Assembly (NCBI GenBank): GCA_951406725.2
Contig: OX597815.1
Location: 18,910,001-18,974,000, forward strand
Reading direction: 5' to 3'
DNA length: 64,000 nt
Source: Octopus vulgaris
Taxonomy: Eukaryota
Shown here: one piece after another, positions 60,600 through 63,179 of the stretch
How the letters are laid out: each line of letters starts with the position of its first letter
Numbering within the stretch: the stretch's first letter is position 1
Program-made: the position numbers and the translations under genes
The notes under the pieces: model-generated
What the model saw: only the letters and a program-made list of their open reading frames with translations
Databases searched by the model: none
Told to the model about the DNA's origin: nothing

Positions 60600-60810
60600 T
60601 AATCACCAAGTCGGCCTCACCGTTTTCGCTCTTTTGAATGGGTTTCGACTCCCACCGTTTTCTCTCCTCGGATAAACCAGTAACCGTAACGGCATCACCT
60701 CTCAATGTTGTTGTAGTCGTAACCCGTCGTCTAACGTCGAAGTGGCCGGCGGCGGCGGGAGGGGTCGGAAGAAAACAACAAGCCACGGTCCACGGGACTC
60801 GGACGAAAAA
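60600..60810 (+). promoter_or_regulatory. CpG/GC-rich patch, candidate promoter or transcription-start region
   Basis: ggccggcggcggcgggaggggtcgg and many CpGs in an AT-rich window, coinciding with the start of the ATG-free tract. Confidence 0.35.
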
Positions 60811-61238
60811 CAACGAAACCATCACCAGTACTGCCACTACAATTACCTCCACCGACATCACCATATTGCTAGTACAATCATCAGTCAACAACAGCAACAA
60901 CAACAACAACAACAACAACTACTACTGCTGCTTCTACTGCAAAGCCGCTGCCGCCTCTGTGGCTAGTGCTCATTGTAATAACACTAGTATAACTGCTACT
61001 TATTGTAAGCCAACTACAATTTTTATCACTTCTTTTGTGTGTATTCTCATTATTGTTGTTATTATATACATCGACATCAAATATAGTAAACATACATTCC
61101 CTAATTTTCATTTGACGAAATCTACCGACGCAATCGTCCCTTTCATAAACAGTAAACATTTCTCCGTGTCGTTCTTCTTGTCATCATTTTCTAACATATT
61201 GTTGTTATTGGCAACTAACACAAAAATACCAAAAACTC

Positions 61239-61270
<32 letters not shown>

Positions 61271-61309
61271 GCAGCTGCTGTGATCTCAACAACAAGAAAC
61301 ACTGCAACG

Positions 61310-61340
<31 letters not shown>

Positions 61341-61615
61341 GGAGAAGGAGAAAAAGGGAAGAAAAAGGAAAAGCTTTAACTGCAGTAATAATCGTAGTGG
61401 CAGTGGAAGCTGAAGTAGCTGCAGTCTTAGTAAATTCAGAATCCACTTTAGTAACGTCACCAATATCGTCAATAGACATCGAAGAATTTGTCACCGCACA
61501 GACCAGTGCAGCAAGAGGAACCAGTGTACCCGCTGCTCGCTACGTAGGCGACTGGTGTCGTCGTTGCCAGCACAACGACCACAACTGCTATTACTACTAC
61601 TACTACTACTACTAT

Positions 61616-61660
<45 letters not shown>

Positions 61661-62984
61661 AACTACTACGAGTGTTACCAATACTGCCACTGCTTCTATC
61701 ACAGCTGCTGCAGCAGCAACTACAACAACTACAGTAGCTTAGACAGTTGCTGCTGCCGCTGCTGCTGCTGCTGCTGCCGCTGCTACCGCTGCTGCTGTTG
61801 CAGCCACTGCAACTATCATTGCTACAAGTGCTATTGCTGCTGTCATTGCTGCTGCTACAACGACAAAAAATCAAAACGAAACCCCAACAAGCAACGCCGC
61901 CTCCTCCTCCTCCTCCCCCGCCCATTATCACCTCCACACTCACCCCCTCCTCCGCACCCTCTCCAACCACCCCCATTCCGCCTCCACAGACCGCCCCGGC
62001 AGCACCCCCCAAGTCTCCGCTCCACCAACTGGCACCACAACAACATAAACAACACCAATTATCCGATAACCGATCCCAACAGAAACGTCAACAACGCCGC
62101 CAGGCTCCGCCACCGCCCACCTCACAACGGCAAATTAGCAATCAGACCTCACCGAAGTATCAACAACAACAACAAAACCAAGACCATAAACAACAACAAA
62201 AACAAAAACCACAACCTCTGCAAGATTTGCATAACAATAAAAACAGCAAAATTATCGAAACTCAAAATCATCACACCCGACCCCACCCCAATCCCCATCA
62301 CAACAGCCAGACCAATCACATCCCCACCACCACCACCACCGAGCCACAACATATCAACCATCAAAATCACAACCACCATAACATCCAGCAATCGGCATCC
62401 CAAGTACAAAGACACCACACGCCAGCTAGTACCACTGACACCATTATTTCAGACACACCCACACGTAGTAGCGGCCTGGAAAGCTTTCAGCTCCTACAAC
62501 CTTCCCCTACGGGCCAACAGCACCTCCTCACTTCCCCCACAACACCCATTACTGGGTCACCACATTTACTCTATCACCATCAACCTTCACCTTTACCATC
62601 TGCCACTTCGTCAGCTGGAGACTTCCCACCCAACGGCACCGCCACCGGGGTCGCCAGTACCTCCCCGCCCAATCATAACAACAACAAGAATAGCAAAAAT
62701 AAAAACAATAACAATAACAATAACAACAACAACAATAACAATAACAAAAAATTATCGGGATCAACTACCTCTGTTACTGCTACAACACCAACCGTAACAA
62801 TAACAACAACAAACCAAAAACACCCCCAACCTATCTATCACCACCCTCAACGCCCTCCTCAACCCAACCATTCCCACTTAAATTTACAACAAACAAATAA
62901 AGTAGGTCCCCCTGTTCAAAGTTTAACTTCCGGATCCATCAAGGACGCGAGAACTCAAAAGACATCTACGACAACAGGACACAT
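60708..62984 (+). other. Putative long 5' leader (ATG-free, rich in trinucleotide repeats)
   Basis: No ATG in any + frame from 60708 to 62984 on a line-by-line read, while CAT is frequent. Confidence 0.6.
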
Positions 62985-63003
62985 ATGTAGCGGTAGTTAT
63001 GAT

Positions 63004-63179
63004 ATGTGTTCAATGGGAAAGAGTAGGTCTCTGAACCGAAAACTACCCTCAAAACCATCTTTGGACGACGATATTACGGTTCTGGAAGAAATCCCGGTGG
63101 TAGCCCTACCGCGTAAGGACGAATCATCCAAGAGAGTCACCATTTCAACCCCAAAGGCGTTTGACACATCAAATAAAAG
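63004..63179 (+). CDS. Probable first AUG-initiated coding segment of an unidentified host gene; may extend upstream in frame to ~61747
   Basis: MCSMGKSRSLNRKLPSKPSLDDDITVLEEIPVVALPRKDESSKRVTISTPKAFDTSNK(R) is non-repetitive and ends at donor AAG|GTGGGC (63179/63180, phase 2), followed by intron-like (TA)n. The frame is open from 61738. Protein not recognised. Confidence 0.55.

Follow-up and report, generated by a model that had tools for sequence, protein, structure and literature searches.

AUG-less N-termini and an octopus innexin

Conserved non-AUG extensions have been recognized by purifying selection upstream of the first AUG codon (Ivanov 2011, PMC3105428), a pattern for which the same survey lists five causes: a non-AUG start, frameshifting, readthrough, editing and alternative splicing. 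The new human extensions that it reports have a median length of 51 codons and a maximum of 300. We describe a transcribed first exon in a 64,000-nucleotide (nt) stretch of the Octopus vulgaris genome (contig OX597815.1; the window, numbered from its first letter) that carries a selected, AUG-less coding arm of 308–422 codons on an innexin, and on sequence grounds this arm is probably entered at a near-cognate start codon. It shares the selection criterion with the cases in PMC3105428 and is longer than any extension in that human survey; it differs from them in lying in an invertebrate channel gene, in being overlapped by an AUG-started frame of 719 codons and in having a candidate start that is not pinned by deep conservation.

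The innexin UNC-7 of Caenorhabditis elegans has alternative first exons and a conserved 120-residue extension, with a short form produced by internal initiation on the same mRNA, and UNC-7L by itself gave no currents in oocytes (PMC2694797); innexin N-termini of 24–168 residues alter voltage dependence and rectification (PMC7455501). The UNC-7 forms, however, start at AUG codons and have up to 168 residues before the first transmembrane segment, whereas about 470 residues with no AUG are predicted for the octopus protein; since UNC-7L alone gives no currents, the long octopus subunit, too, may do no more than modify channels. For synapsin, a cephalopod neural gene, a non-AUG (Ile) start behind an in-frame stop has been proposed from octopus and squid sequences (PMC6817820), but as the gene's own start, and the accessible text describes neither a long/short pair nor a long extension. 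The very long alternative first exon of GNAS encodes XLalphas and ALEX in two overlapping long frames, and both proteins are established and interact (PMC1186735). The octopus exon is similar in that one frame is spliced to a shared body and the other ends within the exon, and dissimilar in that its second frame lacks amino-acid constraint and its spliced frame lacks an AUG. No such isoform is mentioned in the accessible portions of two mollusc innexin surveys (PMC8049302, PMC7052179), and a literature search for innexins with non-AUG or CUG translation initiation, which left subscription journals mostly uncovered, found nothing.

Coding selection, splicing and transcription of the first exon

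The reading frame of the AUG codons at 63004 and 63013 is open back to 61738 and is CTG-rich at its start, as a preliminary description of this stretch had reported; a TAG lies just before it, at 61735. In 62082–63003, 18 of the 20 listed substitutions are synonymous in the innexin frame where 5.85 are expected (P 1.5e-8); 40 of 51 rows of substitutions are listed, from organisms A, B, D and E, and the null was matched for mutation type. Organism E alone gives 15/17 (P 4e-7), and the segment 62050–62410 by itself 9/10 (P 1.6e-4). The indels of the extension (−3, +3, −3, net −9) are all multiples of three. Judged by this synonymous bias and the lengths of the indels, a minimum of 308 codons ahead of the first AUG evolve as protein-coding sequence does: by the pattern of substitution they are under purifying selection, and the relatives have only in-frame indels in 62082–63003, the outcome that the preliminary description had predicted for orthologues. 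The assembly contains no in-frame AUG between the stop at 61735 and 63004; contigs confirm this for 61805–62687 and 62757–63003 and are not aligned over 61738–61804 and 62688–62756. The composition of the extension points to a disordered segment. Searches among representative sequences only found no match to its peptides, either for 94 residues against proteins of 166–2000 residues, in the ESM Atlas, or for 122 residues against 1.84 billion representatives.

The exon belongs to an octopus innexin (gap-junction) gene and is in-frame with the PF00876 domain. The contigs of run X2 include two junction forms, whose junction sequences each map once in the genome (G000). One leads to exon 2b, a unique 400-codon innexin exon 972 kb downstream with a strong polypyrimidine-AG acceptor, and the join is in-frame. 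Exon 2b scores 352 bits against Pfam Innexin (cut-off 25) over residues 20–381 of the L023 exon, matches the INX-6 structure 5h1q (E 1e-51) and is 100 % identical to the representative of a cluster in which the named proteins are innexin unc-9-like isoforms of Octopus and Argonauta; the window's first exon is in none of the 15 listed of the 31 cluster members. The other form leads to exon 2a (L022:1501-1757, from G000:C2:19398060), which lies 425 kb downstream and has its own ATG ahead of a donor.

Four studies of organism A cover the exon piecewise, skipping simple repeats, with no contig spanning all of it. None of the runs is registered as RNA; X1, X2 and X11 were treated as RNA (their contigs exit at the donor) and X17 and X20 as probably DNA (theirs run across it). 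The contigs of X1 and X2 cease to match at 63179 and those of X11 at 63180, with further letters beyond, as in spliced RNA; the single long first exon up to the 63179 donor that had been proposed is thus borne out by RNA contigs. None of the contrary outcomes that the preliminary description had named was seen, namely an untranscribed or intronic region, an upstream AUG exon spliced in, or frameshifts and stops in orthologues. Single contigs of X1, X2 and X9 cross 61805–62687 free of gaps and extend 47–54 letters towards the repeat, so no acceptor within 61805–62687 is used in those contigs.

Several candidate splice sites were set aside. Contigs run across the acceptor-like AGs at 61989 and 62614, and the one at 61704 leads into the stop at 61735. 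The only consensus-like donor, a GT at 61005, is crossed by contigs, and from it the innexin frame would be reached at none of the AGs at 61742, 61746 and 61803. The missing cover at 61230–61864 (X11) and 60882–61864 (X14) was rejected as an intron for want of a listed joint and of any donor in these segments, and joints at 62343–62782 and three others were dismissed because their sides are 20–22 letters long and lie in repeats. For X11 and X14 alike, contigs start at 61865; a 5′ end, a stop of reverse transcription or a branch with an additional A could each account for this. At the distal 5′ end the 22 loose letters of the X1 contig are presumably a template-switch oligonucleotide. There is no cover just upstream of the contig starts at 60541, 60559 and 60580, a weak hint of a nearer start, and the first ATG after those at 60559–60580 is that at 60638.

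Another unusual feature of the exon is a long ATG-free stretch. No + strand ATG occurs in any frame over 60708–62984, where CAT occurs 42 times, just as had been claimed. Dinucleotide shuffles, against the earlier rough estimate of about 20 expected ATGs, give 23.8 +/- 3.7 (minimum 11, none of 2000 being ATG-free). Local shuffles in 60-nt blocks give 15.8 expected ATGs and a minimum of 7, with none of 1000 ATG-free, and of the 11,801 gaps between ATGs or CATs in 264 kb (the window plus 200 kb beyond it) the second longest measures 649 nt. The gap is real in the assembly but depends on the allele. The four runs whose long contigs include position 61129 (X1, X2, X11 and X20) all have a C>T change at it, and with it an ATG at 61128; on that allele the gap there is 61131–62984, or 1854 nt. 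The preliminary description overlooked this allele, together with the identity of the gene and the 719-codon AUG frame. Its idea of an ATG-free leader holds for the depletion itself and fails for the position, which is not cap-proximal: 13 ATGs lie between 59219 and 60705.

Entry into the AUG-less frame

We consider it about 60 % probable, from the sequence, that a near-cognate start after the GCT repeat yields a long innexin beside the short AUG form. Of the possible causes, splicing (outside the unread repeat), readthrough, editing and a frameshift from the overlapping AUG frame are each disfavoured, which leaves near-cognate initiation. As regards readthrough and editing, there is no frame-0 ATG within 60676–63003, and since no in-frame ATA lies between the stop at 61735 and 62800, A-to-I editing cannot create an AUG where one is needed downstream of that stop. 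Editing upstream was judged very unlikely, as both the UAG at 61735 and an upstream AUA would have to be edited. A at −3 is a preferred feature of start contexts in general; if octopus shares this preference, the candidates with the best context are ATC 61870 and ACG 61876, unchanged in X1, X2, X9, X14 and X11 (organisms A and B), organisms D and E having no cover there.

Under this proposal ribosomes would scan from the proximal 5′ end past a small number of weak AUGs (at 60638, at 60705 and, in most alleles, at 61128), and a fraction would initiate just past the GCT repeat, with AUC 61870 and ACG 61876 the likeliest sites. The predicted products of 837 and 835 residues, respectively, would be subunits with a disordered cytoplasmic N-terminus of roughly 470 residues. 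The remaining ribosomes would leak across 1.1 kb free of AUG to 63004/63013 and make the 459-residue form. Selection would have removed AUGs before as well as after the weak start, permitting both products; the 719-codon frame would serve as a repressive overlapping upstream open reading frame (uORF); and, if the octopus protein resembles C. elegans UNC-7 in this respect, its extended N-terminus may tune the gating or placement of mixed channels.

Several observations weigh against near-cognate initiation or the evidence for it. Should every one of the 10 unlisted letters in the two contigs concerned be non-synonymous, 18/30 would remain (P 0.002), and all relatives are close, with an estimated synonymous divergence of about 9 %. 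The candidate starts range over 61747–62029, of which the most distant relative covers only those after 61900, and 61614–61757 is in no contig, 61758–61804 being only unaligned overhang, so that an AUG or indel may be hidden there. From the distal 5′ end at 59219, 13 upstream AUGs come before the ATG-free stretch, and the absence of out-of-frame ATGs within the extension alone is unremarkable (P 0.13). The junction form with exon 2a closes the long frame after 12 codons; an mRNA with exon 1 joined to exon 2a would either be a target of decay or encode a disordered, soluble protein. Finally, near-cognate initiation by itself leaves unexplained why the overlapping AUG frame stays open for 925 nt past the start (61870–62794; P 0.001–0.004 given the innexin protein).

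That overlapping frame, ORF1 (open reading frame 1), is open beyond chance over its whole length (P 1e-8 to 7e-6 by block phase randomisation). None of the 33 substitutions listed in it creates a stop, against three stops created in frame 2 and one in frame 0 upstream of 61738, and its frame is kept by all indels seen (−9, −60, −3, +3 and −9). Its sequence nevertheless appears to lack amino-acid constraint, with residues changing freely: outside the overlap there are 7 synonymous and 11 non-synonymous changes (7/18 against 5.3 expected, P 0.25), inside it 2 and 13, and the synonymous share of its 5′ part differs from that of the extension (Fisher P 0.0016). It has no Pfam match. The role of a repressive overlapping uORF fits its first half and not its full length. 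We note that its ATG lies directly 3′ of a TGA (60635–60640), and that the frame is open for 145 further codons upstream.

A more far-reaching account would make the 4-kb exon a translational switch with three outputs, in which ORF1, translated and kept open by selection for its passage and not for its protein, gates or frameshift-feeds an AUG-less arm of about 380 codons, and leaky scanning gives the ancestral short channel. We offer this tentatively and think it rather unlikely as a whole; if true, the proportion of long to short subunits in the gap junctions of the octopus would be governed by start-codon stringency alone.

A canonical start may also be hidden, in that, for the true or common allele, the unread repeat (61614–61804) contains an AUG in the innexin frame, a short intron or an assembly error of one base. 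No contig is aligned over 61578–61804, and the assembly has the minority base at 61129 and at 60989, where the A>G change also occurs in X20 and so is an allele; the assembly is thus not the typical allele everywhere. ORF1 also shows a coding-like periodicity of G and purines in 60659–61618. A fusion to ORF1, on the other hand, requires an indel within 61738–61804 only, and would add runs of Ile10, Tyr and Cys and several hydrophobic segments. The 5′ part of ORF1 is unconstrained, unlike the extension, the sole consensus-like donor is crossed by RNA contigs, as described above, and AUG is depleted also over the 900 nt 5′ of the repeat. We regard a hidden AUG as unlikely.

Recoding, which we judge decidedly unlikely, would use the AUG at 60638 and a −1 shift near the C AAA AAA run at 61864–61870 (or an A added by slippage) to make a fusion of about 1,250 residues, unshifted ribosomes completing ORF1. 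This AUG is the first after two of the three proximal contig starts, ORF1 overlaps the frame from 61738 on in the −1 relation, its openness far past chance, its want of stop-creating substitutions and its frame-keeping indels would be accounted for, and the contigs of X11 and X14 start precisely where a homopolymer branch would place them, at 61865. As an X XXY YYZ heptamer the run is imperfect, however, and the sole perfect one (A AAA AAT, at 62746) is downstream of most of the constrained codons; no 3′ structure of the kind expected 5–9 nt downstream folds past 61870, with 61870–61990 essentially unpaired (pseudoknots not being modelled); X1, X2 and X9 traverse the A run gap-free; and the residues of ORF1 are not conserved, in-frame indels being expected anyway in trinucleotide repeats. 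The perfect heptamer (62746–62752) is in the ORF1 frame, 49 nt before the ORF1 stop, and a −1 shift there also enters the innexin frame.

The preliminary description favoured a start within the CTG cluster, scanning- or repeat-dependent, and a signal-like hydrophobic beginning. Such a start would give an 877-residue form. Its Leu run has a hydropathy peak of 2.56, with basic residues after it, and would act not as a cleaved signal but as an additional membrane anchor of N-out/C-in orientation. About 20 in-frame CTG/TTG codons stand in tandem here, and 98 of 100 shuffled sequences fold less well than the repeat. The context is poor at every codon, though, all CTG, TTG and GTG codons in 61747–61852 having C or T at −3 and at +4; the Leu run comes from a (GCT)n repeat, a pattern that does not end at the in-frame stop but extends upstream past it; and the contigs of two runs start downstream of the cluster. 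A cleaved signal peptide, moreover, would misplace the innexin N-terminus across the membrane, to judge from the established topology, and we consider this start improbable and a cleaved signal doubtful. Repeat-associated non-AUG (RAN) translation features a long hairpin-forming CUG/CAG repeat and length-dependent products in several frames. The repeat at 61690–61860 is short and interrupted, with a fold z of −2.30. That everything upstream of 63004 is a plain AUG-depleted 5′ untranslated region, whose open frame is a by-product of C/A-rich repeats, is largely refuted and very improbable indeed, for although repeats open long frames elsewhere (216 and 260 codons in the degenerate CAT repeat at 26515–27331) and no annotated protein with the extension sequence was found, it gives no reason for 18 of 20 changes to fall at synonymous sites of one frame.

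The alternative first-exon array and the features of the exon

A short AUG isoform from 63004/63013, suggested in the preliminary description, is plausible on comparative grounds. Gastropod innexin isoforms of Haliotis, Babylonia and Pomacea (P0022, P0187 and P0194) have a homologous first exon on the same innexin with the same residues at the junction, from which the AUG-started form appears to be old; in a BLASTP comparison with P0194 the N-terminus from 63004 on is 41 % identical over 39 residues (E 9e-6). An in-frame ATA at 62983 and the Cys-Ser-Gly after it align by eye with the gastropod start Met-Ser-Cys-Pro-Ser-Gly, although MAFFT aligned them otherwise, and an ancestral AUG may have been lost at this ATA. 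Sea-slug models of the same innexin (P0001, P0004 and P0225) have N-termini of 340–415 residues from a different first exon, and may be prediction artefacts.

All three of the other annotated N-termini that were mapped fall within the intron of 972 kb, and their donors share the phase of the window exon's, which makes the window exon the most distal member found of an alternative first-exon array. These exons are at G000:C2:19572638, 19737114 and 19929941 (L026, L024 and L025), so that the array spans roughly 1 Mb, and their upstream ATG gaps are ordinary, 221–326 nt at most. Octopus annotations include at least 13 isoforms of this innexin. Exon 2a may be a cassette or an alternative first exon, whose late ATG (L022:1741) would give a 6-residue N-terminus, and some 50 nt before it there is a further candidate for a small exon, which starts with ATG and has a GT donor of phase 2 (L022:1420-1449).

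The features of the exon are collected in Table 1. The single-copy block in it that is unusually invariant contrasts with the synonymous divergence of about 9 % and has a marginal fold z of −1.97; it is probably a non-coding element. Rfam returned 18 matches, all below the gathering score, and thus none at that score for 61387–61577. Broken frames in the intron on the minus strand (L005:9287-10000, L014:1985-3628 and L016:6435-7512) resemble retroelement fragments.

Table 1. Features of the octopus innexin first exon (window positions)
Feature	Position	Strand	Remarks
First exon, longest form	59219..63179	+	Most distal alternative innexin first exon found; RNA contigs, in pieces
Distal 5′ end candidate	59219	+	X1 contig, 22 loose letters joined here
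Possible proximal 5′ end cluster	60541..60580	+	Contig starts of X9 (60541), X11 (60559) and X14 (60580), from three studies
ORF1	60638..62797	+	AUG-started, 719 codons, no other Met; overlaps innexin frame for ~350 codons
uORF	60705..60716	+	3 codons; last ATG ahead of the gap
ATG-free stretch	60708..62984	+	In this assembly
ACG in assembly	61128..61130	+	ATG in X1, X2, X11, X20; 6-codon out-of-frame uORF
Unusually invariant single-copy block	61387..61577	+	Unchanged over 216 nt in organism D; two changes over 191 nt in organism E
Interrupted CAG/CTG repeat	61690..61860	+	Hairpin-capable; fold z −2.30; holds stop 61735 and CTG cluster 61747–61854
AUG-less in-frame extension	61738..63003	+	422 codons at most; P/T/Q/S/N/H-rich
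Imperfect slippery run	61864..61870	+	C AAA AAA, ORF1 frame
Best-context near-cognate start candidates	61870..61878	+	ATC 61870, ACG 61876; A at −3 in A-rich run
Extension part under purifying selection	62082..63003	+	308 codons; 18/20 listed substitutions synonymous
Two tiny out-of-frame uORFs	62985..63034	+	AUG-stop at 62985; 11 codons from 62999
AUG-started N-terminus	63004..63179	+	59 codons; homologous to gastropod innexin isoform first exons
Phase-2 splice donor	63180..63185	+	Joins exon 2b (G000:C2:19945560, innexin) or exon 2a (G000:C2:19398060)

Innexin N-termini govern the gating and rectification of electrical synapses (PMC7455501). If the proposed near-cognate start is used, an AUG-less N-terminus of about 470 residues would mean that a 1-Mb gene with a promoter-choice code is controlled at translation as well, and it is one that annotation would miss.

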